Shown: positions 24,618 to 44,798 of the stretch, piece after piece | How positions within the stretch are numbered: the first letter of the stretch is position 1 | How the letters are laid out: each line of letters starts with the position of its first letter | Origin: Bacteroidales bacterium | Lineage (GTDB): Bacteria > Bacteroidota > Bacteroidia > Bacteroidales > UBA7960 | Assembly (NCBI GenBank): GCA_007130125.1 | Contig: SLSZ01000135.1 | Location: 1-44,798 of the forward strand | Direction: 5' to 3' | Length of the DNA: 44,798 nt | Notes under the pieces: model-generated | The model's database searches: none | The model's input: only the letters and a program-made list of their open reading frames with translations | What the model was told of the DNA's origin: nothing | Translations under genes and position numbers: made by a program

Positions 24618-24619
24618 TT

Positions 24620-25021: not shown

Positions 25022-25026
25022 ATAAT

Positions 25027-25061
25027 GGGCATAGGGCATGGGGCATAAAGCATAGGGCAAT
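25027..25061. repeat. Heptamer tandem repeat (GGGCATA)x5, degenerate
   Basis: GGGCATA GGGCATG GGGCATA AAGCATA GGGCAAT, followed by GAGA-rich and TTTGGGATTT-type low-complexity repeats to about 25165. Confidence 0.85.
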
Positions 25062-25211
25062 TAGCGCTGAGTACGGAGAGGGAGAGAACTGAGAGTGTGA
25101 GAGATTAAAGTTTGGTTTTTGGGATTTTGAATTTATTTTGAACTTGGGATTTTATTTTGGGATTTTCTTTTGGTTGCTTTTTGCTTATATTAAATTGAGG
25201 TTCTTACAGAA

Positions 25212-26228: not shown

Positions 26229-26259
26229 GATTGTGAGCACTGAGAGGTAATTGGTCAGA

Positions 26260-26324
26260 GGTAATCAGTAATCGGCAACCATCAACTCAACGACTAAACA
26301 ACTCAACCTATCAATCAATCAACC
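26260..26324. repeat. Degenerate 7-mer/8-mer tandem repeats, inverted relative to 21275-21372
   Basis: GGTAATC AGTAATC GGCAACC, then TCAAC/TAAAC-based octamers. Confidence 0.75.
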
Positions 26325-26351
26325 AAAAAAACGTTGGTAATAAATAAATTT

Positions 26352-27107: not shown

Positions 27108-27185
27108 TTTTTTTGAAATTTTGATTTGCATATTCAACATATATATCATTTTTAGATTTTTTAACAGTGGAGCGTAATTAATAAA

Positions 27186-28460: not shown

Positions 28461-28462
28461 AT

Positions 28463-28891
28463 TTGACAAAAAAAAAACAACTTATTAACAGAACAGAGAT
28501 TGTAGTCAGGTTCAGCGAAGTTGACTCGATGGGAATTGTTTGGCATGGCCATTATATAAAATTCTTTGAAGACGGAAGGGAAGCTTTCGGCAAGGAACAT
28601 AATATCGGGTATTTGGATATTTATGATAAAGGGTATTTAGCGCCTGTAGTAAAAGTCAATTGCGACTTTAAGCGGTATGTTAAATATGGTGATGCAATTA
28701 TTGTTGAGACTGAGTTCATAAATACAAAAGCAGCTAAAATTGTTTTTAAATTCAAGATCTTTAACAAAAGAAACGACGAGTTAGTTGCCGAGGGAGAAAG
28801 CATACAGGTGTTTACAATGCCTAATGGAGAGCTGGTGCTTACTAATCCCCCGTTTTTTGAAGCATGGAAAAAGGAAAAAGGATTTGTGTGA
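28463..28891 (+). CDS. Acyl-CoA thioesterase (hotdog fold, 4HBT-like)
   Basis: VRFSEVDSMGIVWHGHYIKFFEDGRE. Confidence 0.9.
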   Translation: MTKKKQLINRTEIVVRFSEVDSMGIVWHGHYIKFFEDGREAFGKEHNIGYLDIYDKGYLAPVVKVNCDFKRYVKYGDAIIVETEFINTKAAKIVFKFKIFNKRNDELVAEGESIQVFTMPNGELVLTNPPFFEAWKKEKGFV

Positions 28892-30015
28892 TGAGCAAAA
28901 GAGTAGACATAGTATCAGATCATTTGATTTCTGCTTTGGGTAGCGGTTCAGAAGAAAATTTCAACAAACTGCTGAATAATCGGACAGGCATTACTATGCA
29001 TAATAACGGCAAGTATTCCGATAACATGTTGCCTTTAGGCTCAATTAACGATGAGTGGCTTTCTCAATGGGCTTATAATAATGAACTACCTGAAGGTTTC
29101 ACACGATTTGAAAAGCTTTCTATCTTGTCAATCTCTGAAGCTTTAAAAGACACTTCAATTGATATTTCTTCAGAAGACACGTTGCTGGTTCTTTCGACTA
29201 CAAAGGGAAATGTTGATTTGATAGAGTATCCTGAAATGCATAACAAGCTTGATCTGTGGTATTCGGCCCATCAGATCGCCGGTTATTTTAAAGCCAAAAA
29301 CCGCCCGAGGCTTATATCCAATGCTTGTATTTCAGGTGTTGTAGCTCTTATGTATGCCCAATGGCAGCTTAAGGAAGGCAGATATAAACACGCTGTTGTT
29401 GTGGGTGCTGATACGTTATCAAAGTTTGTTGTCAGCGGTTTTGAATCTTTCATGTCACTTAGCTCTGAAATATGTAAGCCCTTTGATAAAAACCGCGATG
29501 GTTTGACAATTGGCGAAGCAGCAGCAACCATGGTATTAAGTACCCAGGAAAAAGGGAAAGTAAGTATAGTTAAAGGAGCAACGGCAAATGATGCTAATCA
29601 TATAAGTGGTCCGTCGCGCACAGGCGAAGGACTTTTCCAGGCTATAAAACATACACTCGATAATGAAGACATTCAAATAGACTTCATTTCAGCTCACGGC
29701 ACAGCAACACCCTACAATGACGATATGGAGTCGATAGCAATTACCAGAAGCGGATTGAACAATGTGCCCGTAAACGGATTTAAAGGTTATGTCGGGCATA
29801 CCCTCGGTGCTGCCGGAATAGTGGAGGTAATTTACTCATTGTGGTCAATGTATCACAATAAGATAATAAAGACTTTTGGATATAATGAGTTTGGTGTTGT
29901 TGAAAAAGTTAATATAATAGATAGAAATATCACAAAAGAACTGAATAATGTTTTAAAAACCGCATCCGGCTTTGGAGGATGCAATTCAGCCTTATTACTC
30001 AAGAAAAATGGATAA
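28891..30015 (+). CDS. Beta-ketoacyl-ACP synthase (active KS)
   Basis: SNACISG, SAHGTAT, KGYVGHTLGAAG, SGFGG; ATG 28891 overlaps the thioesterase stop. Confidence 0.88.
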   Translation: MSKRVDIVSDHLISALGSGSEENFNKLLNNRTGITMHNNGKYSDNMLPLGSINDEWLSQWAYNNELPEGFTRFEKLSILSISEALKDTSIDISSEDTLLVLSTTKGNVDLIEYPEMHNKLDLWYSAHQIAGYFKAKNRPRLISNACISGVVALMYAQWQLKEGRYKHAVVVGADTLSKFVVSGFESFMSLSSEICKPFDKNRDGLTIGEAAATMVLSTQEKGKVSIVKGATANDANHISGPSRTGEGLFQAIKHTLDNEDIQIDFISAHGTATPYNDDMESIAITRSGLNNVPVNGFKGYVGHTLGAAGIVEVIYSLWSMYHNKIIKTFGYNEFGVVEKVNIIDRNITKELNNVLKTASGFGGCNSALLLKKNG

Positions 30016-30616
30016 TTGGAGTATTATAAACAGTGTGGAAATAAACAATGGCAAAGTGTTTGCCAATGGCCGGCTTGTACATGACACTGAAAATGATTTT
30101 ACACTAGCTTCAAAAGAGCTGTACAAAAAATATAGTAAAGCTTATATCAAGTTTTTTAAGATGGATGCCCTTTCGAAGCTTGGCTTTCTCACAGCCGAAA
30201 TACTTTTGAAGGATTTTAACCTTGAAAACATTGACATGAATGAAATAGCACTGGTTGTTGGAAATTCTAATGCAACAAAGGATACGGATTTGAAGTATTT
30301 GCAAACAATGAGGGAGCAACCAAGCCCGGCCGTATTTGTCTACACACTGCCTAATATTTTGGTTGGGGAAATATGTATCCGGCATGGGTTCAAAGGACAA
30401 AATGTTTTTTATATTAGTGGGAAATTTGATGAGGAAGAGTTGTATGAAAACATTGAATTGCTTATAAATAACAGCACTACTGATTATGTGATAGGCGGAT
30501 GGGTTGACTTTATAAACCCAAATGATTATAAATCCATACTTTACTTAATTGGTAAAGATTCAAAAAGTAGTAAATTTGCAATAAATAATTTAAAACGGTT
30601 AAATAATATTAAATGA
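30008..30616 (+). CDS. Short KS-like chain-length-factor partner
   Basis: KFFKMDALSKLGFL, PSPAVFVYTLPNI..GEICIRH; no catalytic triad. Confidence 0.78.
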   Translation: MDNWSIINSVEINNGKVFANGRLVHDTENDFTLASKELYKKYSKAYIKFFKMDALSKLGFLTAEILLKDFNLENIDMNEIALVVGNSNATKDTDLKYLQTMREQPSPAVFVYTLPNILVGEICIRHGFKGQNVFYISGKFDEEELYENIELLINNSTTDYVIGGWVDFINPNDYKSILYLIGKDSKSSKFAINNLKRLNNIK

Positions 30617-30692
30617 TAAATTTGGAGTTTATTAAGCTAATTGGTAAAACCAAATATTTTATTACTGTAATTTTCAAATAAAACCAATAATA

Positions 30693-30947
30693 ATGGACAG
30701 CTTGATCAGGCAATTAAAAGAACAAATAATTGATCATTTGAATCTTGAGGGACTCAGCCCGGATGATATAAACGAGAAGGAACCACTTTTTGGTGAGGGT
30801 TTGGGGTTAGATTCTATAGATGCACTTGAGTTAACTCTCTTGCTCGAGAGAGGATATGGCATCAAACTTGAAAACCCACAAGAAGGCAAGAAGATCTTTC
30901 AATCAGTTGAAACAATGGCGGAGTATATTCAGCATAACAAAAAATAA
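30693..30947 (+). CDS. Acyl carrier protein
   Basis: PLFGEGLGLDSIDALEL phosphopantetheine motif; 84 aa, acidic. Confidence 0.92.
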   Translation: MDSLIRQLKEQIIDHLNLEGLSPDDINEKEPLFGEGLGLDSIDALELTLLLERGYGIKLENPQEGKKIFQSVETMAEYIQHNKK

Positions 30948-30967
30948 CCCCGAAAATTCATCATCTA

Positions 30968-32152
30968 ATGGGAAATCGCGTGTTTGTTACTGGAATGGGA
31001 ATTATATCAGCAATTGGTAATAATTTAGAAGAAAACTACAACTCATTGCTGAATAAGGAGCATGGTATCAGTAAACTGGATATTCTTGAAACTGTGCATA
31101 AGGATGAAATTGTTTGCGGGGAAATTAAGTTAACTAACGAGGAGTTACTCCAAAGGCTTAAATTACCTGAAAATACAACTTACCCACGGACTACGATATT
31201 GGCTATACATGCTGCCAAAGAAGCATATAATGATGCCGGCCTGGCAAATGGCGATACAGCAAAAACCGGTGTGATACTTGGAACCACCGTTGGCGGAATG
31301 GATAAAAGTGAAAGATATTACAGGCACCCGGAAGAAAATACCGATTTTATTAATACTCATAATTGTGGGTATACAACTGAAAAAGTTGCCGACTCTCTTA
31401 ACCTACAGGATTTTGTTACAACCCTTAGCACTGCATGCAGTAGTGGAGCTAATGCTATTATGCTTGGAGCAAGGCTTATAAAAAACGGGATTGTTGACCG
31501 TGCTATTGTCGGTGGTACCGACTCTCTGTCGAGGTTTACAATAAATGGCTTTAAAACGCTTTTCCTGCTGGATCCAAATCCTTGTTCTCCTTTTGATAAG
31601 GACCGCAAAGGGCTTAACCTGGGTGAAGGGGCCGGCATTTTGGTTCTTGAGAGTGAAAAGCTGTGCAATGAAAAGAAGAAGTACTGCGAGATTAGTGGAT
31701 ATGCTAATAATAATGATGCTTATCATCAAACCGCGACTTCATCCGAAGCAAAAGGACCATTCCTGTCAATGAAAAATGCAATCGAAGTTGGTAAACTTAA
31801 AGCTAAAGATATAGACTATATCAATGTGCATGGAACGGGTACTGATAATAACGATTTTACTGAAGGGATCGCTATGGAAAAATTGTTTGGAGAACATGTT
31901 CCGCCTTTCAGTTCTACAAAATCTTATACCGGCCATACCCTGGGGGCAGCAGGCGCCCTGGAAGCCATATATTCAATACTTTCCATTGAATATAATGTGA
32001 TTTTTCCAAACCTTAATTTTAAACAACGAATATCTGAACTATCGATCTCGCCGGCAACTGTTGTGATTGATAATGCGGGTATTAAGAATGTAATGTCAAA
32101 CTCATTTGGCTTTGGCGGAAACGAAACCACGTTAATTTTTTCAAAGGAATAA
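30968..32152 (+). CDS. Beta-ketoacyl-ACP synthase (FabF-like, active KS)
   Basis: STACSSG, NVHGTGT, KSYTGHTLGAAG, NSFGFGG. Confidence 0.9.
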   Translation: MGNRVFVTGMGIISAIGNNLEENYNSLLNKEHGISKLDILETVHKDEIVCGEIKLTNEELLQRLKLPENTTYPRTTILAIHAAKEAYNDAGLANGDTAKTGVILGTTVGGMDKSERYYRHPEENTDFINTHNCGYTTEKVADSLNLQDFVTTLSTACSSGANAIMLGARLIKNGIVDRAIVGGTDSLSRFTINGFKTLFLLDPNPCSPFDKDRKGLNLGEGAGILVLESEKLCNEKKKYCEISGYANNNDAYHQTATSSEAKGPFLSMKNAIEVGKLKAKDIDYINVHGTGTDNNDFTEGIAMEKLFGEHVPPFSSTKSYTGHTLGAAGALEAIYSILSIEYNVIFPNLNFKQRISELSISPATVVIDNAGIKNVMSNSFGFGGNETTLIFSKE

Positions 32153-32154
32153 AT

Positions 32155-33213
32155 ATGGCTATTTATATAAACGGAGCACAGGCAATTTCACCACAAAATA
32201 CTTTTTTAAGTCCTGAAATACCAAAGGACCTTATAAAGTATGATGGTATGATGCAAAATGTTTTGCCTGACTTCAAAAACTATTTCAATCCTATTGAAAT
32301 GCGGCGAATGAGCAGGATAATTAAATGTAGCTCTGCTGCTGCCGCAGAGTGTATTAATGAAGCTGAGATTGACACACTCAATGCCATTGCCGTTGGTACA
32401 GGCTTGGGATGCCTTGAAGATACCGAGAAGTTCCTTAATAAAATGATCGATACTAACGAAGGTATGCTTACTCCAACTACATTCATACAATCAACACACA
32501 ATACACTCGCCGGAAAAATTGCCATAGATTATAAGTGTACCGGAGCAAATTTTACATATGCACACAAAACGATCTCCTTTGAGTCTGCCTTGCTTGAAGC
32601 TATATTGTTAATAAAAGAAGGTAATAAAAATATTCTGGTAGGCGGTGTTGATGAAATAACTCCTGAGAATTACAATCTGAGGAAACACATTGATCATTGG
32701 AAAGAGGAACCCTACAATAACTTAGATGTATGTAACTCCAACACCCCGGGCACTGTGGCCGGCGAGGGGGCTGCGTATTTTATGATTTCGGCGGACAAAA
32801 CAAAAAACACTTATGCCGAAATTAAAATGGTGGAACTTTATCACAGATCCAATGGCATTTCGGCATTATCTAAAAACTTGAATAACAGATTGCAAGATGC
32901 CGGTTTGTCATTTGATGATATTGATCTGGTTTTATTTGGATATAACGGCGACAGTATCAGTGATACTTACTATCACCAGGTAAAAGATATGATATTTGAT
33001 AACCATGTTCATGGTTATTATAAGCATTACTGCGGGGAATATGATACATCCGCCTCTTTTGGTGTGTGGATGGCAACAAGGATCATCAAGCAAAACGATG
33101 TTCCGGAAAATGTTATTCTGGGAAAAAGAAAAAAAGATAAAATAAATAATGTTTTGTTGTATAACCAGGAAAACAACAAAAACCACTCTTTTATAGTTTT
33201 ATCCGCATGTTGA
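32155..33213 (+). CDS. Beta-ketoacyl synthase chain length factor
   Basis: RRMSRIIK, GTGLGCLEDT, FIQSTHN, GEGA; catalytic Cys/His motifs absent. Confidence 0.85.
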   Translation: MAIYINGAQAISPQNTFLSPEIPKDLIKYDGMMQNVLPDFKNYFNPIEMRRMSRIIKCSSAAAAECINEAEIDTLNAIAVGTGLGCLEDTEKFLNKMIDTNEGMLTPTTFIQSTHNTLAGKIAIDYKCTGANFTYAHKTISFESALLEAILLIKEGNKNILVGGVDEITPENYNLRKHIDHWKEEPYNNLDVCNSNTPGTVAGEGAAYFMISADKTKNTYAEIKMVELYHRSNGISALSKNLNNRLQDAGLSFDDIDLVLFGYNGDSISDTYYHQVKDMIFDNHVHGYYKHYCGEYDTSASFGVWMATRIIKQNDVPENVILGKRKKDKINNVLLYNQENNKNHSFIVLSAC

Positions 33214-33974
33214 CTTATCGTCATATTAGAATAGCCTTTATTTTAATATCCTGTATGTTGATTGCCGGGAATTTTATGTCATATATCCCAATTGCTTGCT
33301 TTTTCATTACACTGGCATTGTTTTTGTCAATATTATTTATCGGTTCTGCTTTTATCTGTAGCCAGTTTTATACTAAAGTTATTTGCCGTGACATAAGGGC
33401 ACGTAACAAAAATGTTTTCATAACATTTGATGATAGCCCTGATAAAACAGAAACACCTTTGGTCCTTGAAGTATTAAAAAAACACGATATAAAAGCAACT
33501 TTTTTTATAATTGGGGAAAAGGCTGAAGAGAATATTGAATTGGTTAAAGAAATTGCCGGGCAAGGGCATGTTTTAGGTAATCATTCATACAGCCATAAAA
33601 ATTATTTTCCCTTAAGAAGTACTAAAAAAATAATTAAAGAAATTAAAAAAACAGACAATTTAATAAATAGTGTCAGGCTATCCGAAAGAATTGTTTTCAG
33701 GCCGCCATTCGGGGTAACCAACCCCTCAATAGCAAAAGCAATAAAAAGGCTTAAAGTTTATACAATAGGATGGAGTCTTAAATCGTTTGATACCGTGACT
33801 AAAAAGAGAGAAAGGGTGCTGAAAAGATTGATAAACAGAACGAGGCCAGGCGATATCGTTCTTTTGCATGATCCGGTCAAAAATATTCATATTGTTTTGG
33901 ATAAGTACATTGAGTTTTTAAAAAAAAATAATTATAACTTTGAAACAGTAGATAAATTGCTGAGTAACGAGTGA
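33207..33974 (+). CDS. Polysaccharide deacetylase (NodB/CE4) with N-terminal TM segments
   Basis: ITFDDSP, GNHSYSH, FRPPFG, IVLLHD. Confidence 0.88.
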   Translation: MLTYRHIRIAFILISCMLIAGNFMSYIPIACFFITLALFLSILFIGSAFICSQFYTKVICRDIRARNKNVFITFDDSPDKTETPLVLEVLKKHDIKATFFIIGEKAEENIELVKEIAGQGHVLGNHSYSHKNYFPLRSTKKIIKEIKKTDNLINSVRLSERIVFRPPFGVTNPSIAKAIKRLKVYTIGWSLKSFDTVTKKRERVLKRLINRTRPGDIVLLHDPVKNIHIVLDKYIEFLKKNNYNFETVDKLLSNE

Positions 33975-34037
33975 CGAGAAATAATTGCTAAATTCCCGCA
34001 CTAGTTACAAGCTAACAACCACTTAACAAACCGATCT

Positions 34038-34664
34038 ATGAAGACATTTTTTGCATTATTAATTTGCTTCCTGTATGTTACTGCTTATAGCCAGTCTGAT
34101 TTCAGACCGGTAAGTGATATCGAGACTGTCGGCAGTAAACTTGACAACATGGCTAAAAGCCTTAATACAATACAAAGTGATTTTCACCAGGAAAAGTATA
34201 TGGACTTCCTGGATGTTACTCTTGAATCCAAAGGAAAGTTCTGGTTTCAGAAAGAAAACTCGCTTCGCTGGCAATATACCGAGCCATACAATTATATTGT
34301 AATAGTTAATGATGGCGTTGTGCAAATAAGTGATGACGGCAGAAATCAGGAATTTCAGGTTAAAGGTAATAAGATATTTGAGCAGGTTAATAATATAATT
34401 GTTGCTTCCATGAGTGGTGATGTAATTGATAATGATGATTTTGATGTTAAGCTATTTGAAAACGATGAGTACTTCCTTGTTAAGCTAAAACCTTTAAAAA
34501 AGGATATTTCTAAGGTTATTCATGAAATGGAAATGTATTTTGATAAATCATCATTGCATATCTCCAAAATAATAATGAACGAGCCTAACAACGACTATAC
34601 TTTGATAAGATATACAAACCGGAAAATCAATGAGCCGATTCCCTCGTCAGTTTTTAGCCTTTAG
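34038..34664 (+). CDS. LolA-like outer-membrane lipoprotein carrier protein
   Basis: Signal peptide; SDFHQEK, SKGKFWF, LRWQYTEPY. Confidence 0.85.
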   Translation: MKTFFALLICFLYVTAYSQSDFRPVSDIETVGSKLDNMAKSLNTIQSDFHQEKYMDFLDVTLESKGKFWFQKENSLRWQYTEPYNYIVIVNDGVVQISDDGRNQEFQVKGNKIFEQVNNIIVASMSGDVIDNDDFDVKLFENDEYFLVKLKPLKKDISKVIHEMEMYFDKSSLHISKIIMNEPNNDYTLIRYTNRKINEPIPSSVFSL

Positions 34665-35250
34665 TATCATTTCTTTTTTGCTTTTCTCTTGCCAAACACA
34701 TAAACTTATTTGGGAAGAAGAACAACCCGGCCCTGGTATATCTGCACCACTGCAATTAGAGAAAGGCGACAGGGCTATGTACAAAGCAAACTTAGAAGTG
34801 TTCAGGAACAATCTAAGCGGTGTGTTTGTTATTCTAAACGCTGACAGCCTCTATAAAGTTGGATTTGTCTCTGAAATGGGAGTGAAGTTTTTTGACATGA
34901 AAATAGATGAGGATGGCTATGAAGTTGTTTACTGTATGGAGGCAATTAACAGAAAACCCTTGTTGAACAGTATTGCAAGAAGTTTGCAATACATCCTCGA
35001 AGACCCGGGAAAACATGATGGAAGCTTTTATGCTACAAAAAGCAATGATACAATTTATAAGCTTGCAGACAATGATGGCTGGAAACGAAAATATTTTGTT
35101 GAAAGCGGCAGGGTTAAAAGAATTGAAGCAAAGAAGCTGATACGCAACAGAGTTTTTCTCAATGCCGGCTATAATAATAAAAACCAACCTGAAAATATTA
35201 TATTTTTGCAAAGAGGGATAAGGATGAGAATAGAAATGAATAAACTTTAA
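34630..35250 (+). CDS. Hypothetical lipoprotein (possible LolB-like partner)
   Basis: Lipobox LFSC; LSGVFVI, SEMGVKFFD; overlaps the lolA-like gene. Confidence 0.7.
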   Translation: MSRFPRQFLAFSIISFLLFSCQTHKLIWEEEQPGPGISAPLQLEKGDRAMYKANLEVFRNNLSGVFVILNADSLYKVGFVSEMGVKFFDMKIDEDGYEVVYCMEAINRKPLLNSIARSLQYILEDPGKHDGSFYATKSNDTIYKLADNDGWKRKYFVESGRVKRIEAKKLIRNRVFLNAGYNNKNQPENIIFLQRGIRMRIEMNKL

Positions 35251-35255
35251 AAAGA

Positions 35256-35290
35256 AGCTGACAGTTGACAACAGGCAGTTGGCAAATTGC
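35256..35290. repeat. Heptamer tandem repeat (AGTTGRC)x5, degenerate
   Basis: AGCTGAC AGTTGAC AACAGGC AGTTGGC AAATTGC. Confidence 0.7.
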
Positions 35291-35309
35291 TGTAATATAT
35301 TAAATACAA

Positions 35310-35684
35310 ATGTTGAAAAGTGATTTTTATAAAATATTAAATAAAGAGCATACTGAAGGAGAGATTGTTTATAAAATAAAATTAAACCCGTCTCATCCGG
35401 TTTACGTGGGACATTTCCCTGATGTACCTGTAACTCCTGGTGTATGCCAGGTTGCTATTGTAAAAGAATGTCTTGAAGATGCCCTGAATAAGACGTTGTT
35501 TTTGAAAAACTCAAAAGATATTAAGTTTGCCGGACTGAACAACCCCGTGGAGAAGGATGAGTTAATAATAAAAATATCTTATGGCTTGCTGGAAGACGGT
35601 TTATATAAAATCAACGCAACAATAATTGATGACCAGGAAAATACGGTTTTAAAATTGAGAGGTGAATTTGGTGACCAGTTATAA
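35310..35684 (+). CDS. FabZ/ApeI-like 3-hydroxyacyl-ACP dehydratase
   Basis: HPVYVGHFPDVPVTPGVCQ. Confidence 0.88.
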   Translation: MLKSDFYKILNKEHTEGEIVYKIKLNPSHPVYVGHFPDVPVTPGVCQVAIVKECLEDALNKTLFLKNSKDIKFAGLNNPVEKDELIIKISYGLLEDGLYKINATIIDDQENTVLKLRGEFGDQL

Positions 35685-36834
35685 ACTTCAACAAAAATTT
35701 GATTCTCTTAAGTGTTGTGTCATTATACCTACCTATAATAATGAATCAACATTGCCGGGTGTAATAAAAGGTGTTTTGAAATTTACATCCAATGTAATTG
35801 TTGTAAATGATGGTTCCACGGATTCAACTAATGAAATAGTTTCAGGATTTCCCCAGGTAACCTATGTTTCTCATAATAAGAACAGGGGTAAAGGTATAGC
35901 TTTGCGTACAGGGTTTTCTGAAGCTATTAAAATGGGATATGATTATGCTATTACCATTGATTCTGACGGACAACATATGCCCGGAGATATTCCGAAATTT
36001 ATTGATGCCCTGGAGAAAAACCCTGGTGCTTTGATTGTAGGAGCACGTAATATGGATCAAAAAAGCGTACCTGCAAAAAGTTCTTTCGGGCATAAGTTCA
36101 GCAACTTCTGGTATTACGTGGAAACCGGAATAAAACTCCCTGATACTCAAACAGGTTACAGGCTCTACCCCGTAAAGAAACTCAGCAATATGCGCTTTTA
36201 TACCGAAAAATTTGAGTTTGAGATAGAGGTGCTTGTCAGGGCAACATGGAAGGGTGTGCCGGTTAATTATGTACCTGTGGATGTATATTATGCACCGAAA
36301 AACGAACGTGTATCTCACTTCAGGCCTGTCAGGGATTTTGCAAGAGTCTCACTGCTGAATACCTGGTTGGTTATTTTAGCTATTTTCTATTATCGCCCTC
36401 TTTTTGTATGGAGAGATATTAGAAAAAAAGGATTTGCTGAGGTTATTGGCAGAAATGAAAGCAACCACAAGCTGGCTGCTGCTATTGGTTTTGGCGTGAT
36501 GATGGGTATAGTGCCAATATGGGGCTACCAAACTGTAACAGCCTTGTTTCTGGCACATCTGCTAAGGTTGAACAAACTGATTGTGTTCTGGTCATGCAAC
36601 ATCAGCTTGCCACCAGTTATGCCTTTCATTTTGTATTTAAGCTTTAAAACAGGTGAACTTTTTGTCGCAAACCCTATTGTGCTTTCGTTTAACCCCGACT
36701 TATCAGTACAATCATTTACTATCGGGCTTAAACAGTACATTATTGGTGCTATCATATTTGCAATAGTTGCTGCCGCGGCAGCTTTTGTTATTTCTTTTTT
36801 ATTGCTTTCTTTGCGGAAGATTATAAAGAGATAA
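35662..36834 (+). CDS. Glycosyltransferase family 2 fused to a DUF2062 membrane domain
   Basis: VIIPTYN, NDGSTD, IDSDGQH, DTQTGYRLYP, SHFRP; C-terminal TM helices. Confidence 0.88.
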   Translation: MNLVTSYKLQQKFDSLKCCVIIPTYNNESTLPGVIKGVLKFTSNVIVVNDGSTDSTNEIVSGFPQVTYVSHNKNRGKGIALRTGFSEAIKMGYDYAITIDSDGQHMPGDIPKFIDALEKNPGALIVGARNMDQKSVPAKSSFGHKFSNFWYYVETGIKLPDTQTGYRLYPVKKLSNMRFYTEKFEFEIEVLVRATWKGVPVNYVPVDVYYAPKNERVSHFRPVRDFARVSLLNTWLVILAIFYYRPLFVWRDIRKKGFAEVIGRNESNHKLAAAIGFGVMMGIVPIWGYQTVTALFLAHLLRLNKLIVFWSCNISLPPVMPFILYLSFKTGELFVANPIVLSFNPDLSVQSFTIGLKQYIIGAIIFAIVAAAAAFVISFLLLSLRKIIKR

Positions 36835-36942
36835 ATAATTAATGATCAACGGAACATTTTCTTTATTTTAAAATTTGTACGAGGCTATAGATGGCAATAT
36901 CCCACATGTATTTTGTTTATGGCTTTTAAAATTTGGAAATTA

Positions 36943-39900
36943 ATGAGTAAGCTTTTTGTTGCAATATACACTTTCATTCGAAGGTTCAGAGTTATATTTC
37001 TTCTGGCAGTGATTGCTTTTGCTGTGTTTGCAACATTTAACATCAGGAATATTACATTATTCGATGATTTTAGTGCTGTTTTTCCCCAGAGTGACAAAAT
37101 TGAAATTTATAACGAAGTAATATCAAACTCGACAATCCTCGAACAGATAGTATTTAATGTTTACCAGAAGGATACCTTGCAGGAAGCTGATCCGGCACAA
37201 TTAACATCTGTTGCTGCTCAACTTGCCGACAGCATTGATTATTACCTTAAGCCTGATTATGTGAGGTCAATTACATCGGGTGTCGATGATCAACTATTCT
37301 TTGAAGCCTTTGAATTGTTTTATCAGTACCTGCCTTTTTATCTTGATAGTGCTGATTATCGAATGCTTGATAGTCTTATTACCTATGAAGGTATTGAAGC
37401 CAAGCTTGAAGAGAACCTGAGATCATTGATGTCACCAGTGTCAGTTGTTACACGTGATTTTTTACTACAGGATCCATTACATATTGTTTTGCCTAAGCTT
37501 GAAGTTTTGAAAGATGTCCAATTGGAGGAAGGGCTTGAGTTATACAATAACTACCTGGTTACTGAAGATAAACGTAATGCTTTATTCTTTGTGCTACCCC
37601 ATGATACGCACAGTACAGCGGAAAACGAATATTTTGTCAATGAGTTGGAAAGGATTACCGGCAATTTTGAAAAGACTTACCCTGACATAAAAATCAGCTT
37701 TTACGGTTCAGTGCCGGTTGCAATTGCCAATACCCGGCAGATAAAGGATGATATTAAGCTTACAGTGTCAATAGCCTTAGTACTGCTGGTTTTCTTAATG
37801 CTTTTCTTTTTCCAGCGGATTCAGAACATTTTGCTGATTTTTTTCCCTGCCGCTGTCGGAGGTGTTTTAGCATTGTTCTTTTTTGCTGTATTTAAACCTG
37901 AAATATCGGCTTTGTCACTTGCAATAGGTTCAGTGCTGCTGGGAATCACCATTGACTTTTCTTTACATTTCCTTACACACCATAAGCACTCCGGCTCATC
38001 AAAAAAGACACTTAAAGCTATATCCGAGCCTGTTTTAATGAGTGGTTTTACAACAACAACAGCTTTCTTATGCCTGTTATTTATTACATCACCGGCTTTG
38101 CAAGACCTTGGTATATTTGCATCAGTTGCCGTTATGGGGGCAGCATTAGGTGCGTTGGTTTTTTTGCCACATATGGTAAATGATAAAAAGGTGCCAGGTA
38201 AAAAGCTTTATCGCCACACTATAATTGAGAAAGCTGCTGCTTTTGAACTGCATGCAGTTAAACCCCTGGTAATTGCCATATTGCTTATATCTGCATTTTT
38301 GTTGTATTTTGCACAATATACAAGCTTTGAAGAAGATCTGGAAAAGTCGGGTTACCTTTCGGAAGAGCTGGCTGAAGCTGATGAAAGGTTGAAAAAGATC
38401 TCCGATATAACCGAAACGACAATATATGTCATAGCTGAAGGAGAAACACTGGATGAATGCCTCCAGCATAACAGGGAGATCGTTAATGAGCTGCAACACC
38501 TGCAAAGTGAAAGTGTTTTCGAATCTTATTATTCAGTATCACGAATTATTCCTTCAGAAAAATTACAACAAGAAAAAATTGAGAAGTGGAATGACTTTTG
38601 GACAGATGAGAAGATTAGTAAAGCTAAATCTATTATGCGTGAAGCAGGAGGAAAGCTTCATTTCAACGAAAAAGCCTACCGGGGATTTTTCCGGATGATA
38701 GAAAAGGATTATGAAATTTTACCGCCGCACACTATTGCTAAAAAGCTGGGGCTTATAACTGAGAACTTTATCATTCACACACCAAGCCGTGTGATGGTTG
38801 CAAATCTGATAAAAGCCGATACTGACGAAATATCGGATGCTATTAAAGAGCATCTGGCCAAAAAAGAAAATACTCTCGTATTTGATAAAAAATCATTAGC
38901 TGAAAGTCTTTTTGATATTCTTAAACATGATTTCAACAGATTTATAGCGGCTTCTCTCGTAGTAGTTTTTTTGATTATACTGATATTTTTCGGCAGGATC
39001 GAACTGGCAATAATTACTTTCCTGCCGATGGCGCTAAGCTGGGGTTGGACTATCGGTATAATGGGCTTATTTGATATTAAGTTCAATATTTTTAATGTCG
39101 TTATTTCGGCATTTATTTTTGGGTTGGGGGTTGATTATTCAATATTTATTTCAAAAGGATTATTACAAAAGCATAAGTTTGGGGCTGACAATATCATTTC
39201 CTATAAAAGCTCAATATTATTGTCATGCCTCAGTACATTGATAGGGGTTGGTGTTTTGATATTTGCAAAACATCCTGCATTAAAATCAATAGCATTACTT
39301 TCTCTTATAGGTATAAGTTCCGTTGTGTTAATTGCATTTACATTACAACCGTTTTTGTTTGATAAAGCTTTTTATTATAAGGGTAAGCCACGTAAGAATC
39401 CGGTGAATCTTTATCAGTTTATGGTATCATCATTGGGTTTCTTTTCTTTTGGTGTAGTTGCCCTGTTTTTATCTGCATTAGTGCCGTTTTTTAAGGTATT
39501 CCCGGCAAAAAAAGTAAGGAAGAGGGCAGCTTATAAACGGCTGATATGCTCGGCTTGCAAGGTTATTATTTCAATTTCATGGTTTTATAGCCCCAAGAGA
39601 TCGTTCGAACTTGATAAAAGCACTTTTGACAAATCGTCAATTATAATATCCAACCACCAGTCTGTAATGGACTTGTTGTTATATCTGTCACTTTCGCCAA
39701 AAATAGTCATGCTTGTAAAAGATTGGGTCTGGAACAATTTTTATTTCGGGCGGGTTGTCAGATATGCCGGCTTTATCAATGTTGAAGAAGAATATAAAGA
39801 GACGTTACCTGCCCTGCAAAAAGCGCTTGATGATGGTAATTCAATACTGATTTTTCCCGAGGGTACAAGGACAAGAACGGGTAAGATCAGGAGATTTCAT

Positions 39901-40797
39901 AAAGGAGCTTTTTACTTTGCCGAACAGCTAAAAGCTGATATTACCGCAATACTTCTGCACGGTTATTATGAAGTGCTTCCGGCAGGTACTTTTATACTTG
40001 ATCCCTATCCTGTAAATGTTCGTCTGCTTGGAAGGTTTAGGTATGATGAGCTTGGAGACAATTACTCTGTGAGAGCAAAAGCAATGTGCAGGCTCTATCG
40101 TAAAGAATATAGAAAGTTGTTTGAAACGGAAAGGAGGACATTTTTCTACAAAACTGAACTCATTAACAAGTACAAGTTTAAAGGCCCTGTTATTGAATAT
40201 TATGTTAAAATAAAGCTTAGACTGGAAAATAATTACGAACTGTATGATGAAATTATACCGCGCAGCGCAAAAATCTTTGATGCCGGTTGTGGATATGGAA
40301 TGCTCACAAATATGCTGTCGCTCACAGGAAAGGATCGATATATCAAAGGAGTTGATTATGATAGAGAAAAAATAGAATTTGCTAAGAATACAGTATCTTT
40401 TGATCAGAAAAATATTGATTTTGAATGTGTTGATATTGCAGAATATGAGCCTGAATATTATGATGTTTTTATACTATTCGATGTGCTGCATTACATACCT
40501 GAAAGCTCGCAAAAAGCAGTTATTGAAAAATTTATTGCAAAGCTTAACCAGTCCGGCATGATCATTATTAGGGAAGGGAATAAAGACATCAAAAGCAAAC
40601 ATTTTATGACACGCGTCTCCGAGTTTTTCTCCACTGGTCTGGGATTTAACAAAGCAAAAGCCAAGCTTTCGTTTATTTCCGGTTCACTTTTGAAAAAAAT
40701 AGCAGATGAAAATAACATGTCTTTTGAGGTCATTGCATCCGAAAAAAGAACATCGAATCAGGTATTTGTTTTTAAAAAAAATAATCAAAAAAATTGA
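36943..40797 (+). CDS. Trifunctional MMPL/RND exporter - PlsC acyltransferase - class I SAM methyltransferase
   Basis: Two TM repeats with GITIDF and GLGVDY; NHQSVMD and FPEGTR (PlsC); DAGCGYG (SAM binding). ATG 36943 preferred. Confidence 0.88.
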   Translation: MSKLFVAIYTFIRRFRVIFLLAVIAFAVFATFNIRNITLFDDFSAVFPQSDKIEIYNEVISNSTILEQIVFNVYQKDTLQEADPAQLTSVAAQLADSIDYYLKPDYVRSITSGVDDQLFFEAFELFYQYLPFYLDSADYRMLDSLITYEGIEAKLEENLRSLMSPVSVVTRDFLLQDPLHIVLPKLEVLKDVQLEEGLELYNNYLVTEDKRNALFFVLPHDTHSTAENEYFVNELERITGNFEKTYPDIKISFYGSVPVAIANTRQIKDDIKLTVSIALVLLVFLMLFFFQRIQNILLIFFPAAVGGVLALFFFAVFKPEISALSLAIGSVLLGITIDFSLHFLTHHKHSGSSKKTLKAISEPVLMSGFTTTTAFLCLLFITSPALQDLGIFASVAVMGAALGALVFLPHMVNDKKVPGKKLYRHTIIEKAAAFELHAVKPLVIAILLISAFLLYFAQYTSFEEDLEKSGYLSEELAEADERLKKISDITETTIYVIAEGETLDECLQHNREIVNELQHLQSESVFESYYSVSRIIPSEKLQQEKIEKWNDFWTDEKISKAKSIMREAGGKLHFNEKAYRGFFRMIEKDYEILPPHTIAKKLGLITENFIIHTPSRVMVANLIKADTDEISDAIKEHLAKKENTLVFDKKSLAESLFDILKHDFNRFIAASLVVVFLIILIFFGRIELAIITFLPMALSWGWTIGIMGLFDIKFNIFNVVISAFIFGLGVDYSIFISKGLLQKHKFGADNIISYKSSILLSCLSTLIGVGVLIFAKHPALKSIALLSLIGISSVVLIAFTLQPFLFDKAFYYKGKPRKNPVNLYQFMVSSLGFFSFGVVALFLSALVPFFKVFPAKKVRKRAAYKRLICSACKVIISISWFYSPKRSFELDKSTFDKSSIIISNHQSVMDLLLYLSLSPKIVMLVKDWVWNNFYFGRVVRYAGFINVEEEYKETLPALQKALDDGNSILIFPEGTRTRTGKIRRFHKGAFYFAEQLKADITAILLHGYYEVLPAGTFILDPYPVNVRLLGRFRYDELGDNYSVRAKAMCRLYRKEYRKLFETERRTFFYKTELINKYKFKGPVIEYYVKIKLRLENNYELYDEIIPRSAKIFDAGCGYGMLTNMLSLTGKDRYIKGVDYDREKIEFAKNTVSFDQKNIDFECVDIAEYEPEYYDVFILFDVLHYIPESSQKAVIEKFIAKLNQSGMIIIREGNKDIKSKHFMTRVSEFFSTGLGFNKAKAKLSFISGSLLKKIADENNMSFEVIASEKRTSNQVFVFKKNNQKN

Positions 40798-40841
40798 AAA
40801 TACACTTGTGTTAAGTTGCCTGTTTTTAATCAGTACAATAC

Positions 40842-42338
40842 ATGAAAAAATATGACATAGTAGTTATCGGTGCAGGCCTGGGAGGTTTGATCACATCAAC
40901 TATTCTTTCTCGTGAAGGCTATTCTGTGTGCGTTTTAGAAAAAGGCGTGCAGATCGGTGGAGCAATCCAGTCTTTTTCACGTGATAATGTTACTTTCGAT
41001 GTTGGTGCGCATTATGTAGGAGGGCTTGAACAAGGGCAAAACCTTAACCAAATATTGCGTTTCCTAAATGTTAAGGATAAGCTGAAACTCAAAAAGCTTG
41101 ACGTTGATGCCTATGATAAAATAACTTTTCTGGATCAAAATAAAGAATACCCACATTCACAGGGATTTGAAAATTTTAAAGAAAACCTTTTGGAATTTTT
41201 CCCTGCAGAAAAAAAAGCTGTTGACAAATATATTGAAACGGTAATAAACCTTGTTAATGATTTTCCTCTATTTAAGTTGAGTGAAGGAGAATACTCATTG
41301 TTTTCTTCAAAACATCAAAATATATCGGTGGGAAATTATTTGGATTCAATTACTGAAGATGAGAACTTAAAAAATGTTTTGGCAGGAAACAATTTGCTGT
41401 ATGCAGGGGAGCAATATTCTACTCAATTATCTGTACAAGGACTGATTCACTATTCTTATCTTGAAAGTGCTTACCGCTTTGTAGGAGGAACATCAAAGCT
41501 TGCTCATGCCCTGGCTGACGAAATAACTGCGAATGGCGGTGAGATACTTGTTAAGTCGGAAGTAAAAAGGTTTGAATTAGAAAATGGCAAGATTGATAGT
41601 GTTGTTGTCAATGAAGGGGAAAAGGTGTTAGGTAAACATTTCATTTCGAACATGCACCCAACGCGTACCTTTGAAATGATTGATGAACAGGAGGTAAGAA
41701 AATCATATTACAGGCGAATTGTTAATCTTGAAAACACAATATCGGTGTTTTCTGTTTATGGCATTTTAAAACCTAATAGCTTTCCATTTCTGAACTCAAA
41801 TCATTACATCTTTAGAGAAAATAATGTTTGGGGTGTTGATAATTATGATAAACAGCAATGGCCTAGCATGAGCATGTTCCTTACGCAGCCTGTTCCCGGA
41901 AATGATAGATACGCAAAGGGGTTCACTGCTTTAGCCTATATGAAGTTTGATGAAGTTATGAAATGGAAAAATACTGTAGTCGGTAGTCGTGGTGATGATT
42001 ATTATGAGTTTAAAAAATTAAAGGCCCAGAAAGTATTGGATCTGGTTGAAAAAAAGTTTCCCGGTTTACGTGACTCTATAAGCAATGTATACAGCTCCTC
42101 ACCCTTGACATACCGTGATTATACAGGCACTGTTGATGGTTCTCTCTACGGAGTTGTCAGGAATGTTGATAGTCACATGGAAAACCTTGTGCTTCCTGAT
42201 ACTAAGATCCCAAATCTTTTGTTTACAGGACAAAATACTACCATGCATGGTGTTATTGGTGTGGCAATAGGTTCATTGCTCGTATGCTCCAAGTTTTTAG
42301 GAATGAAGTACCTGGTGGATAATATTAATAAAGCCTGA
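40842..42338 (+). CDS. Phytoene-dehydrogenase-like NAD(P)/FAD oxidoreductase
   Basis: VIGAGLGG dinucleotide-binding motif, FDVGAHY, SPLTYRDY, FTGQN..HG. Confidence 0.88.
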   Translation: MKKYDIVVIGAGLGGLITSTILSREGYSVCVLEKGVQIGGAIQSFSRDNVTFDVGAHYVGGLEQGQNLNQILRFLNVKDKLKLKKLDVDAYDKITFLDQNKEYPHSQGFENFKENLLEFFPAEKKAVDKYIETVINLVNDFPLFKLSEGEYSLFSSKHQNISVGNYLDSITEDENLKNVLAGNNLLYAGEQYSTQLSVQGLIHYSYLESAYRFVGGTSKLAHALADEITANGGEILVKSEVKRFELENGKIDSVVVNEGEKVLGKHFISNMHPTRTFEMIDEQEVRKSYYRRIVNLENTISVFSVYGILKPNSFPFLNSNHYIFRENNVWGVDNYDKQQWPSMSMFLTQPVPGNDRYAKGFTALAYMKFDEVMKWKNTVVGSRGDDYYEFKKLKAQKVLDLVEKKFPGLRDSISNVYSSSPLTYRDYTGTVDGSLYGVVRNVDSHMENLVLPDTKIPNLLFTGQNTTMHGVIGVAIGSLLVCSKFLGMKYLVDNINKA

Positions 42339-42391
42339 GGTTTTCTTCAAATATCTCTATATTGATTTTGATAAATAATTTTAAAAATTCT

Positions 42392-42419
42392 TGTCACAAA
42401 AATCCTGTTAAAAACGACT
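42392..42419 (+). promoter_or_regulatory. Putative autoregulatory ECF-sigma promoter
   Basis: TGTCAC-N17-CGACT about 20 bp upstream of the probable TTG start (42440) of the ECF sigma. Confidence 0.45.
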
Positions 42420-42439
42420 GTATAATAAAAGCATCTGTT

Positions 42440-43120
42440 TTGGGAAAATTCGAAGATATATACAACGAAAACTATAATACCATGCTTGGTGTTGCGCGCA
42501 AAATGATAGGCAATGGTTATGATGCCGGCGATATAATACACGATGTTTTTATTGATTTCTTCGAAAAATGTGATGAGAGGACAACAGTTGTGAAATATCC
42601 TAAAAGCTGGTTATATCGTGTTACTTTGAACAAGTGTGTTGATAGGTTAAGAAAAAGTAAAAACCATAAAGATATCGAGGATGTTCATGGTAAAACAGAC
42701 GAGAATGACCAGACGGAAATTTCAGAGAAAAAGGCTATTGTCAGCCTGGCACTGTCAAAACTAAAAACAAATGAAAGAGAATTGGCAGTTCTGTATAGTG
42801 AGGGGTTATCTTATAAAGAAATTGCCGGAATTGCCGGCATAAAACTTTCTTCAGTGGGAAAAATGCTGTCGCGCACATTAAAAAAAATTGAGCAGGTACT
42901 ATGCCTTTCGCAAAACCCCTGGGAAGAAGACATCCTCCTATTGTTGCAAATGTTGGTGACGAACTTGTTGTGGCTATTCCTGAAACAGGGGAAATACTCA
43001 TCTATGACCTGGATGGAAAACTTCTGTCAAAACAGAACATTGACTGGGCAAAAGATTATGTTTCAGTGGAGGAACAGAAAGAGATTCAGCGCAATGCTAT
43101 TGAGAGGTACCGTAATATAA
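42440..43120 (+). CDS. ECF-type RNA polymerase sigma-70 factor, natural stop apparently lost (about 75-aa read-through tail)
   Basis: Region 2 DIIHDVF..KSWLYRVTLNKCVD; region 4 LYSEGLSYKEIA..SVGKMLSRTLKK ending near 42895. The tail overlaps the next ORF by 220 bp. Confidence 0.75.
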   Translation: MGKFEDIYNENYNTMLGVARKMIGNGYDAGDIIHDVFIDFFEKCDERTTVVKYPKSWLYRVTLNKCVDRLRKSKNHKDIEDVHGKTDENDQTEISEKKAIVSLALSKLKTNERELAVLYSEGLSYKEIAGIAGIKLSSVGKMLSRTLKKIEQVLCLSQNPWEEDILLLLQMLVTNLLWLFLKQGKYSSMTWMENFCQNRTLTGQKIMFQWRNRKRFSAMLLRGTVI

Positions 43121-43506
43121 AGGAACCGCGTTTTGTGGAATGGGCATCCCCGGAAGAAAACCGTGCCGCACGTGATTATCTTGTGCGGGAGATGGAAAAA
43201 GACCTTGAAAAAATAAGCAAGCCAATACGTATGCCGTTTTTTTCAACCCTTATCCAAGACTCCGATGACAACCTGCTGTTTTTTGAGTTTCCAAAAGAAG
43301 AAGGAGCTAATAAGTTCAATGTATGGGTTTACCAGGATGGCGGGCAATTTGTAGCACAAAGCAGCTTCCATGTTGAAGGGTATGAGCTTGAAATTAAAAA
43401 CTCTAAAATGGCGTTTCATGATGGGTATTTGTATGCGCTGGTAAAGAAAAAAGGAGCTGAAGGCGTACCGCTAAGGGTAATGAGGTTTGAACTTAAAGGA
43501 CAATAA
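42901..43506 (+). pseudogene. C-terminal fragment of a larger (probably secreted, beta-propeller-like) protein
   Basis: Protein-like composition, but it begins abruptly at the end of sigma region 4. There is an in-frame TGA at 42889, and no signal peptide or leader. Confidence 0.55.
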
Positions 43507-43554
43507 TGCCGGGATGTTAGAATATCTAAAATAAAACTCATCAGACTTTTCTTT

Positions 43555-43980
43555 AGGTGCAGAGCAACGTGACATAAAATCATCTTTTAATATCACGGTG
43601 CTCTGCACCTTTTGTTTAGCGAAGGTTGCATATTTGGCTGCAAATATCACGGTGCTCTGCACCTTTTATTTAGTAGGGAGAGCATTTTTGGCTACTTACA
43701 AATATTACGGTGCTCTGCACCTATTAGTTAACGGCGGCTGCATCTTTAGCTACAAATGTTGCTATGCTATGCACCTTTTAGTTAATGGCAGCTGCATCTT
43801 TGGCTGCAAATACTTGGTGTTCTGCATCTCTTATTTAGCCACGTATGGTCATTCAGCGAACGTTTTTACTCCTATCGTTATTAAAATTGTAACAAACCTT
43901 TCTTAGGTGCAGCGCACCGGCTATATTTATAACATTGAATGTTAATAAAGACTATCTAAGGTGCAGCGCACCGTGACATA
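43555..43980. repeat. Left array of REP-like 22-nt hairpin repeats (8 copies)
   Basis: Consensus AATRTYRCGGTGCTCTGCACCT. Minus copy at 43555; plus copies at 43589, 43643, 43701, 43755, 43809; minus copies at 43905, 43959. Confidence 0.9.
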
Positions 43981-44035
43981 AGTCATAGCATTTTATTTAT
44001 ATTTGCATAGTTATTAACCCAAAAAACCTTTAACC

Positions 44036-44494
44036 ATGGCAAACACCTACACACAATTTTACGCTCATCTTATATTTTCTCCAAAAAACAGACAAGCCTT
44101 AATTAAAAAGGCCTGGAAAGACGATTTAGAGAAATATATTACAGGAATAGTTCAACAAAATGGCCATAAATTGCTTTCTATAGGCAGCATGCCTGACCAT
44201 ATTCACATCTTTATTGGATATAATGTAAATCAGCTAATTCCAGAGTTAGTTGAGAAAATAAAAACATCAAGTAATGCCTGGATAAAGAATAATAATCTTT
44301 CAAAGAGCAAATTTGAATGGCAGCGTGGCTATGGTGCTTTTTCGCATTCAAGATCCAATATAGACAGTGTAGTTAAATATGTTTTGAATCAGGAGCAGCA
44401 TCACAAGAAAATGACTTTCAAAGAAGAATATTTAGAAATTCTTAAAAAGAATGATGTTGATTATGAAGATAGATACCTTTTTGAATTTTTTTGA
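44036..44494 (+). CDS. tnpA: Y1 HUH tyrosine transposase (IS200/IS605 TnpA-like; probable REP-associated RAYT)
   Basis: PDHIHIF HUH motif, IKTSS, WQRGYGAFS, catalytic YVLNQ; no tnpB nearby; flanked by hairpin repeats. Confidence 0.9.
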   Translation: MANTYTQFYAHLIFSPKNRQALIKKAWKDDLEKYITGIVQQNGHKLLSIGSMPDHIHIFIGYNVNQLIPELVEKIKTSSNAWIKNNNLSKSKFEWQRGYGAFSHSRSNIDSVVKYVLNQEQHHKKMTFKEEYLEILKKNDVDYEDRYLFEFF

Positions 44495-44530
44495 GGTCAT
44501 AGGGGTTTTTATTAATATAATTGTACTAAA

Positions 44531-44660
44531 AATGTTGCGGTGCTCTGCACCTATTAATTAGCTACGGCTGCATGTTTGGCTACATATGTTGCGGTGCTCT
44601 GCACCTATTACTTAGAGGAGGCTGCATATTTGGCTGCAAATGTTACGGTGCTCTGCACCT
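44531..44660 (+). repeat. Right array of REP-like hairpin repeats (3 copies, 54-bp period)
   Basis: WATGTTRCGGTGCTCTGCACCT at 44531, 44585 and 44639. Confidence 0.9.
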
Positions 44661-44701
44661 TTTTTTTGATTTTTTACAGGGTTTTGATTTTTATATTTGG
44701 G

Positions 44702-44743
44702 ATTTACCCTGTTAAATGTAATTTTGTATTTAACAGGGTGAAT
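44702..44743. repeat. 16-bp-arm inverted repeat (small palindromic element)
   Basis: ATTTACCCTGTTAAAT-N10-ATTTAACAGGGTGAAT, followed by TTTGAAC-type heptamers at 44744-44771. Confidence 0.7.
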
Positions 44744-44798
44744 TTTGAACTTTGAAGTCTGAACTTTGGATTTTTAATTACTTATTTAGCCCCATGTA

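Follow-up and report, generated by a model that had tools for sequence, protein, structure and literature searches.

Organization of the locus

The stretch of DNA analyzed here (the window) is the entire 44,798-bp contig C249 of a Bacteroidales bacterium, whose 92%-complete assembly comprises 2.82 Mb in 261 contigs with 37% G+C. Close to the right-hand end of the window, a gene for a small Y1/HUH endonuclease is flanked by tandem copies of a short hairpin that is preceded by a conserved tag. In our view, the locus is likely REPtron-like (REP, repetitive extragenic palindrome): inverted copies of the cognate DNA site stand on either side of the Y1/HUH gene, and the arrays are an amplified module. 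An earlier sequence-only reading of the same DNA had compared the repeats to a CRISPR array with a period of 54 bp. The features of the locus are the following.

43552..43579, minus strand: M0, the outermost hairpin copy (hairpin 43556-43568, one stem mismatch; weak covariance-model match, E 4.7)
43586..43843, plus strand: left array, head-to-tail units L1-L5, each of tag, hairpin and linker (Tandem Repeats Finder (TRF), covariance model and unit alignments)
43902..43979, minus strand: M1 and M2, the gene-proximal upstream hairpins (43906-43918 and 43960-43972), opposite to the arrays
44036..44494, plus strand: Y1/HUH endonuclease gene, 152 amino acids (open reading frame (ORF); Pfam PF01797 Y1_Tnp, E 2e-26)
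44522..44667, plus strand: right array, head-to-tail units R1-R3 (TRF and covariance model)

TRF reported a period of 54 at 43589-43843 (4.7 copies, 72% matches) and at 44526-44660 (2.5 copies, 86% matches), and the 54-bp periodicity claimed from the sequence is thus borne out in both the left and right arrays. The left side also has a higher-order period of 112 bp. The core of the repeat is the hairpin GGTGC-NNN-GCACC, with a 5-bp stem and a 3-nt loop, which is present in 11 copies, most of them preceded by a CTACAAAT-type tag. Hairpins in the plus orientation start at 43597, 43651, 43709, 43763, 43816, 44539, 44593 and 44647, those at 43763 and 43816 being degenerate, and hairpins in the opposite orientation start at 43556, 43906 and 43960. 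The spacing from hairpin to hairpin is 54, 58, 54 and 53 bp in the left array, 54 and 54 bp in the right array, and 54 bp between M1 and M2. The left distances had been read as 54, 58, 54 and 54; the first three hold, and the fourth is 53 between hairpins, as the tag there has lost 1 nt.

A covariance model built from the loci of other genomes gave nine matches with E≤0.012 in 43589-44663, and the next best match elsewhere in the window had an E of 1.3. The scores were 26.4, 35.5, 37.1 and 18.0 bits for L1-L4, 33.9, 33.4 and 34.6 bits for R1-R3 and, on the minus strand, 30.7 bits for M1 (43902-43936) and 18.3 bits for M2 (43956-43979); L5 was undetected. The hairpins of the right array are perfect. 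This array begins 28 bp past the stop codon of the Y1 gene, and eight consecutive T follow its last hairpin. Mapping of empty sites and boundaries showed that homology to seven related loci stops at 43494; on the right flank, the contig stops 138 bp beyond the last hairpin, and the mapping reached no right end. M0 and L1 form a 25-nt inverted pair (I1; arms 43555-43579 and 43586-43610, 88% complementary), and the region 43546-43620 folds as single-stranded DNA into a strong hairpin (-22.2 kcal/mol, z -10.2). This pair resembles a REPIN-like doublet.

The Y1/HUH enzyme

The protein carries the motifs DHIH at residues 54-57 (HUH being H55-I56-H57), WQ at 95-96 and YVLNQEQHH at 115-123, the last with the catalytic tyrosine Y115. 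It passed the NCBIfam model NF033573 (IS200/IS605 family transposase) with 65.9 bits at a cut-off of 55. Among solved structures, the best sequence match is 2xm3_A (E 1.3e-7), in which the HUH motif and the tyrosine are aligned with those of the window protein. The search label of this entry says just 'transposase'; we take it to be ISDra2 TnpA. The six solved structures that matched all bear the label 'transposase' or 'putative transposase' and are presumably of the IS200 type.

A scan of genome contigs returned 541 stretches encoding relatives, of which the best 80 loci (54-83% identity) were used. They are almost all from Bacteroidota, and counts of 81 refer to these 80 loci plus the window locus. 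The motif Y---Q--HH is found in 80 of the 81 related genes and in five of six paralogues in the genome. By its motifs (DHIH, WQ, Y---Q--HH), the predicted enzyme is an IS200-like TnpA-Y1 of subclass 1.2. This subclass is described (PMC6006769) as having the motifs DH[IV]H, WQ and Y---Q--HH, a length of about 148 amino acids and few, divergent copies per genome (mean identity 36.2%), and as occurring in Bacteroidetes and Cyanobacteria. The window protein agrees in its 152 residues and its motifs, and the genome has six Y1 copies that are 35-52% identical, one of them with an in-frame TAA. The table on subclass 1.2 in that survey gives 'no' under REP, and its text describes members as generally without typical IS200 terminal structures; the lineage is listed there without partner repeats. 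In contrast, 78 of the 81 loci examined here carry the tagged hairpin, many of them also with tandem arrays. Our search of the literature, which did not cover subscription-only papers, turned up no account of hairpin arrays in this subclass.

Several paralogues in the genome each have a different hairpin repeat of their own in the flanks; the periods are 52, 53, 56 and 84 bp. Among 24 loci of paralogues and relatives (L002-L025), other hairpins with periods of 48-56 bp were seen at L002, L003, L013, L018, L021, L023 and L024. Five of the 11 TRF arrays of period 46-58 in the genome are no more than 301 bp away from one of three Y1 genes.

IS200/IS605 enzymes act through a catalytic HUH motif and a tyrosine and recognize small DNA hairpins on single strands. 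The window protein shares the HUH and tyrosine residues and belongs to the same Y1 transposase family (NF033573, PF01797). One reading of the locus is that gene and hairpins once moved together as an IS200-like mobile element, and that the arrays are duplications of its ends, now decaying and inactive. The NCBIfam call and the degeneracy of L4 and L5 would suit this reading, as would the patchy distribution of the protein (63% identity to the closest relative among 40 related genomes, 42-50% for same-genus matches, and 76-83% for proteins found in other Bacteroidota families), but the gene is intact with all its catalytic motifs, the right-array hairpins are perfect, and the six copies in the genome are not the near-identical copies of an insertion sequence. 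Moreover, the flanking sites are inverted with their tags toward the gene, whereas the ends of IS200/IS605 elements are described as lying on one strand (PMC8266576). The tyrosine motif also differs from Y[IV]ENQ. We therefore find an old element doubtful. Among the window ORFs of at least 150 amino acids, none matched tnpB; the contig stops 304 bp past the Y1 gene.

A tagged hairpin as the repeated site

Sites from the 80 other loci were collected in an alignment of 103 sequences (A2), with the window left out, and the covariance model was built from it. The consensus is CTACAAATATTnC-GGTGC-TCT-GCACC-T, with G or T as the first loop base in most rows. The model found 473 matches in the 80 related loci. 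The seeds of A2 were perfect hairpins containing CTAYAAA, which makes its count of stem pairs circular, and a tag-anchored test was used instead. A perfect 5-3-5 hairpin was found 13 or 14 nt from the first base of the tag for 207 of 451 CTAYAAA tags, compared with 1 of 451 at a control offset, and at least 20 different stems were seen. The structure of the hairpin is thus what is conserved, and its sequence varies. The site is a CTACAAAT-type tag, 5-6 nt and the hairpin with its GC-rich stem, with the tag starting 13-14 nt before the hairpin. The tetranucleotide CTAC (complementary to GTAG) does not vary in A2, but this is by construction, since it is part of the seeds, and its first base likewise lies 13-14 nt before the stem. 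It abuts the stem solely in 25-bp arrays of relatives. Such arrays were observed at L043, L066, L070, L072 and L096; they consist of up to about 11 head-to-tail copies of the 25-bp site alone, without linkers, and a unit's tag adjoins the stem of the following one, with GTAG right beside the stem.

A scan with a position weight matrix and a pairing score at a threshold of 10 gave 186 matches in the first 30 loci and two in shuffled sequences. Applied to all 81 loci, it detected 468 sites, which are spread over 78 of them. At the 78 loci with a single gene match, the gene-proximal site is in the minus orientation upstream in 60 of 64 cases and in the plus orientation downstream in 59 of 62, so that the tags of these sites face the gene. 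Arrays in the opposite orientation are common further out, and the window pattern (++++- gene +++) is typical. The link to the HUH enzyme that had been proposed from the sequence is supported by this inverted-bracket architecture.

The repeats could act mainly at the level of RNA or transcription, as an array of terminators or attenuators or as a processed small-RNA array. Terminator-like sites number 12 in comparison with 1.2±1.3 in shuffles, 11 of them are repeat hairpins, and the last right-array hairpin is followed by T8. However, the stem is merely 5 bp, the 54-nt units fold as their shuffles do (z -0.69 to -0.74), and RNAalifold detected no conserved helix in the linker; it paired arms of neighboring hairpins only. 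A search of 43000-44798 against Rfam gave seven matches, all to microRNA families, far short of the gathering scores (best 29.3 vs 82 bits) and taken as chance. The structured repeat RNA that had been suggested as one origin of the fixed unit length thus finds no backing here. As sites occur in both orientations around the gene, a DNA site fits better than a transcript, and we rate a primary role in RNA as very unlikely.

Spacing of the sites

Same-orientation neighbors at the 81 loci fall into two classes. The first has a spacing of 25-26 bp (52 pairs, 14 loci), and the second a spacing of 46-58 bp (128 pairs, 53 loci) with a mode of 51 and 12 pairs at 54. Two pairs lie at 31-45 bp, and the range of 59-70 bp is empty. 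The linkers of the class around 51 bp are 21-30 nt long, with 40 of 53 measuring 23-26 nt, and are unrelated between loci. Two spacing classes with unrelated linkers show that the length regularity is real and family-wide, and the earlier proposal of a constrained unit length holds for the whole family, beyond what a single tandem duplication would give. At 17 loci with at least two unrelated classes of linker, the difference in spacing averaged 1.48 bp, compared with 2.00 bp between loci (p=0.06); an exact lineage-specific ruler is not established by this difference.

A 51-bp unit might be two 25-bp units of which every other one has decayed. This is true for a minority of loci, is not borne out in general and is not evident in the window. 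The start of the linker matches the tag consensus at six or more of ten positions at 11 of 53 loci, and the mean number of matches is 3.98 vs 3.02, an excess that is partly due to the invariant T after the hairpin. No signal of a pseudo-hairpin was found in the linkers (2.72 vs 2.85 pairs).

Units and linkers within the window

The six complete linkers in the plus orientation share a pairwise identity of 53-86% (mean 71%), compared with a shuffled baseline of 53±7%. The shared frame of these linkers that had been noted from the sequence is borne out in the unit alignments. The linker between M1 and M2 (28 nt) is 51% identical to the others, which equals the baseline, and the 54-bp step is kept; here, too, the sequence-only reading was correct. 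In the 58-bp unit, for which it had given a core of 8 nt, MAFFT instead places a 4-nt insertion at the tag (GGCTACTTACAAAT vs GGC----TGCAAAT; CTAC-TTAC).

The hypervariable patch between conserved hairpins fared less well. In the window, the variable columns of the linkers cluster weakly: a run of nine has p=0.017, and a five-column diversity sum has p=0.13, both from six related units. Single columns outside the patch are equally variable, and 20 of the 41 columns of linker and tag are invariant. In related arrays (21 pairs of adjacent units from 13 loci), adjacent units are 87% identical including the linkers. The mismatch there is roughly uniform along the linker, at 0.05-0.33 per position and mostly 0.10-0.24, compared with a mean of about 0.05 across tag and hairpin; no general hypervariable patch was present in these pairs.

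A regular period, a short palindromic element that is conserved and greater variability in the DNA separating its copies do recall a CRISPR array, which would hold a conserved repeat and acquired spacers. Yet the would-be spacers are homologous to each other, about half of the columns of linker and tag do not vary, and the conserved part is the predicted site of the enzyme. The same site also forms the spacer-less 25-bp arrays of relatives. No cas domains were found in the 31 window ORFs, and no Cas1 was detected in the 92%-complete genome by a search whose positive control found it in 7 of 14 known genomes. We give virtually no credence to a CRISPR-like adaptive array, and the analogy is abandoned.

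The left block 43697-43811 and the right block 44527-44641, of two units each, are 83% identical, indicating that whole two-unit blocks were copied or converted between the two sides of the gene. Block duplication or conversion of this kind speaks against the unit-by-unit, polar addition that had been suggested. The left array had also been said to decay with polarity. Its two gene-proximal copies are indeed the most degenerate (18.0 bits and undetected, vs 35-37), but no significant general polarity was seen: in related arrays, the gene-proximal end scored lower than the gene-distal end in 9 of 14 cases and higher in five (p about 0.10). In the related arrays with at least four units (16 arrays in 12 loci), both edges score below the interior.

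Occurrence in the genome and in metagenomes

The assembly contains nine exact GGTGC-N3-GCACC sites, of which eight are in the 1.1 kb of the window locus. A weight-matrix scan of the 92%-complete assembly found no further copies of the window hairpin type scoring at least 18 outside the window and contig C218; with 261 contigs, some hairpin copies may be missing from the assembly. On C218, an intergenic mini-cluster of the window hairpin was observed at 17159-17330, away from any Y1 gene copy of the same type. Two of its copies point the same way, at a distance of 54 bp and separated by an unrelated linker; the third is degenerate and stands in inverted orientation. It is the sole other cluster in the genome, and it also has the 54-bp step, in agreement with the period in the window.

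A second family of tagged hairpins (CTACAAACAGG..ACTCC-TAC-GGAGT) was noted as single copies at C148:27246, C20:2371, C205:20754 and C8:14822. The copies on two of these four contigs are near contig ends, and the stem also occurs at L103 in another genome. C20 in addition has an array of period 56 at 2070-2179.

Metagenome contigs from four DNA runs were compared with the window; the 2019 run may represent the source sample. Only covered parts of the arrays are informative, and contigs drop rare variants. The arrays are covered at 43300-44486 in 2019, at 43443-43948 and 44353-44600 in 2012, and at 43683-44172 in 2022. These contigs show 0-1 differences, no gaps and unchanged unit numbers where covered. 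In the divergent run X5, a contig joins 43630 to 43901 via 35 other letters; its shorter side is 35 letters long and has a likeness of below 95%. This weakly supported alternative junction may stem from another organism or locus. Contigs from runs X1 and X4 join 43977-43981 to 43582-43643, bringing together an M2-like copy and an inverted L1- or L2-like copy with 5-10 letters between them. The summed depth of these joins reaches 19.8, compared with 13.6 for the main contig in X1, which suggests more REPIN-like doublets outside the assembly or a derivation from related organisms.

Interpretation of the locus

Loci of REP-associated tyrosine transposases (RAYTs), or REPtrons, are defined by an inverted bracket of small palindromes around the gene (PMC2817692). 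The window locus shares this architecture, as its Y1/HUH gene is flanked by inverted tagged palindromes, with M1 and M2 in the minus orientation upstream and R1-R3 in the plus orientation downstream. Enzyme and hairpin vary together between the paralogues. REPs are also kept near the gene in Marinomonas Ma and Mb (PMC8266576). There are several differences from known REPtrons. The hairpin is tiny, the GTAG-complement tag is separated from the stem by the intervening 5-6 nt and is not adjacent to it, and the copies form mostly direct, head-to-tail arrays, an arrangement that is reported to be rare for GTAG and CGTC REPs (PMC3733652).

A parallel to the arrays is known in Pseudomonas fluorescens SBW25, where RAYT-adjacent clusters consist of ordered tandem units of REP and flank with a fixed period (PMC3116915); the periods given there are 184 bp (112+72) or those of REPIN-sized units of inverted doublets. 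Both systems have tandem units of fixed period beside the gene of the cognate enzyme. The window units differ in that they are single hairpins with a spacing of 25-26 or 46-58 bp, a spacing class that recurs across many genomes. The window locus differs from the Pseudomonas clusters in the lineage of its enzyme, in how small the tagged hairpin is, in its head-to-tail order and in the two recurrent spacing classes.

Several observations weigh against a REPtron-like locus. The window enzyme is of class 1 (IS200-like) and not TnpA_REP of class 2: it scored 22.5 bits with the NCBIfam model NF047646 (REP_Tyr_transpos) and failed its cut-off of 80. The hairpin is not dispersed in the genome, where 8-11 copies in the window and 1-3 copies on C218 were counted, and five larger genomes of relatives have 0-12 pattern matches each. 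Such local occurrence and low counts mean that the copies do not make up a REP population of the classical kind. The contigs of the three metagenome samples (2012, 2019, 2022) gave no sign of units being gained or lost at present, although contigs drop rare variants. Finally, slippage or unequal exchange alone leaves unexplained why unrelated linkers, both between loci and between M1 and M2, are of nearly equal length.

With these points taken into account, we still consider the REPtron-like organization to be the probable one. The module would then consist of the site of about 27 nt and a linker of about 27 nt, and the 54-bp repeats on both sides of the gene are, with the same degree of confidence, tandem duplicates of it. 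By analogy with IS608/ISDra2 and TnpA_REP, the enzyme would bind the folded hairpin on single-stranded DNA, and the tag would act as a guide or as a determinant of cleavage. The arrays would gain and lose length mainly as whole modules are duplicated, deleted or converted between the repeated sites via slippage or unequal exchange, and nicks made by the enzyme may stimulate these events. The site would be kept by selection or homogenization while the linker drifts. The hairpin and T8 after the gene may double as its terminator.

The regular spacing leaves room for another possibility, the central idea of the sequence-only reading, in which the arrays are built by the enzyme itself with a length ruler. 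The Y1 enzyme would cut single-stranded DNA at equivalent points of adjacent sites and join the ends again, and whole units of about 25 or about 51 nt would be excised and inserted beside a tag already in place, with the arrays gaining one unit at a time. The family-wide quantization of the spacing with unrelated linkers points in this direction, and so does the small difference in spacing between unrelated linker classes at the same locus. Three unrelated linkers (those of the plus units, of M1-M2 and of C218) give the 54-bp step, the 4-nt insertion in the 58-bp unit sits at the tag, and Y1 enzymes are described as cleaving and transferring strands at sites set by a tetranucleotide beside a hairpin (PMC8266576). 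On the other hand, the unit numbers are constant in the contigs from 2012, 2019 and 2022, the similarity of the left and right blocks and the decay at both edges suit ordinary tandem-array dynamics, and the within-locus difference in spacing is not significantly smaller than that between loci. We estimate that the spread of about 2 bp around 51 could arise by rare insertions and deletions from one ancestral spacing. A ruler of this kind is possible, if unlikely. It is rather doubtful that this clade of subclass 1.2 itself sets its hairpin sites at quantized distances, either 25-26 nt or roughly double, by cutting single-stranded DNA at the tag and joining it again. If it did, the clade would represent a natural enzyme-driven generator of tandem units of fixed length, and a third life-style of IS200-type enzymes beside transposition of insertion sequences and the spread of REPINs.

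The analysis disposes of a misleading CRISPR comparison and assigns the locus to the realm of REP/RAYT systems. Three regularities can be tested further: the tagged 5-bp hairpin with compensatory changes in its stem, the inverted bracket, and the two sharp classes of spacing. If the spacing comes from the enzyme, the 152-residue protein would be a model for how an HUH enzyme measures and rearranges single-stranded DNA; if not, the locus would be an ordinary, locally amplified repeat cluster.

Neighboring features

Beyond the right array, an inverted repeat of 16 nt was observed (44702-44717 and 44728-44743; 94% complementary, arms 10 nt apart). It is followed, near the end of the contig, by a tandem repeat of 7/14 bp (TGAATTT, 44739-44779). 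The depth of the metagenome contigs rises around 44702-44779, which may represent another repeat that broke the assembly.

Upstream of the arrays, an ECF-sigma-like ORF at 42362-43120 (Sigma70_r2, r4_2) overlaps an ORF of 201 amino acids at 42901-43506 in another frame. In relatives, the 201-residue part is the C-terminal half of an open frame of 423-449 amino acids, and about 1.2 kb of L107 (286-1497) is missing between window positions 42892 and 42898. The region 42362-43506 looks like a deletion that fused or truncated two genes immediately upstream of the arrays.

Elsewhere in the window, the heptamers CGTCACC/CGTCACT are repeated at 21349-21396 (TRF periods 7 and 14), and longer runs of them stand beside the Y1 paralogue on contig C134 (L004, 1116-2176). 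From 23424 to 42338, genes of the ketoacyl-synthase, ABC-2 transporter, LolA-like, glycosyltransferase, MMPL/acyltransferase/methyltransferase and amine-oxidase types follow one another in a run, which looks like an ordinary cluster for lipid or pigment biosynthesis.

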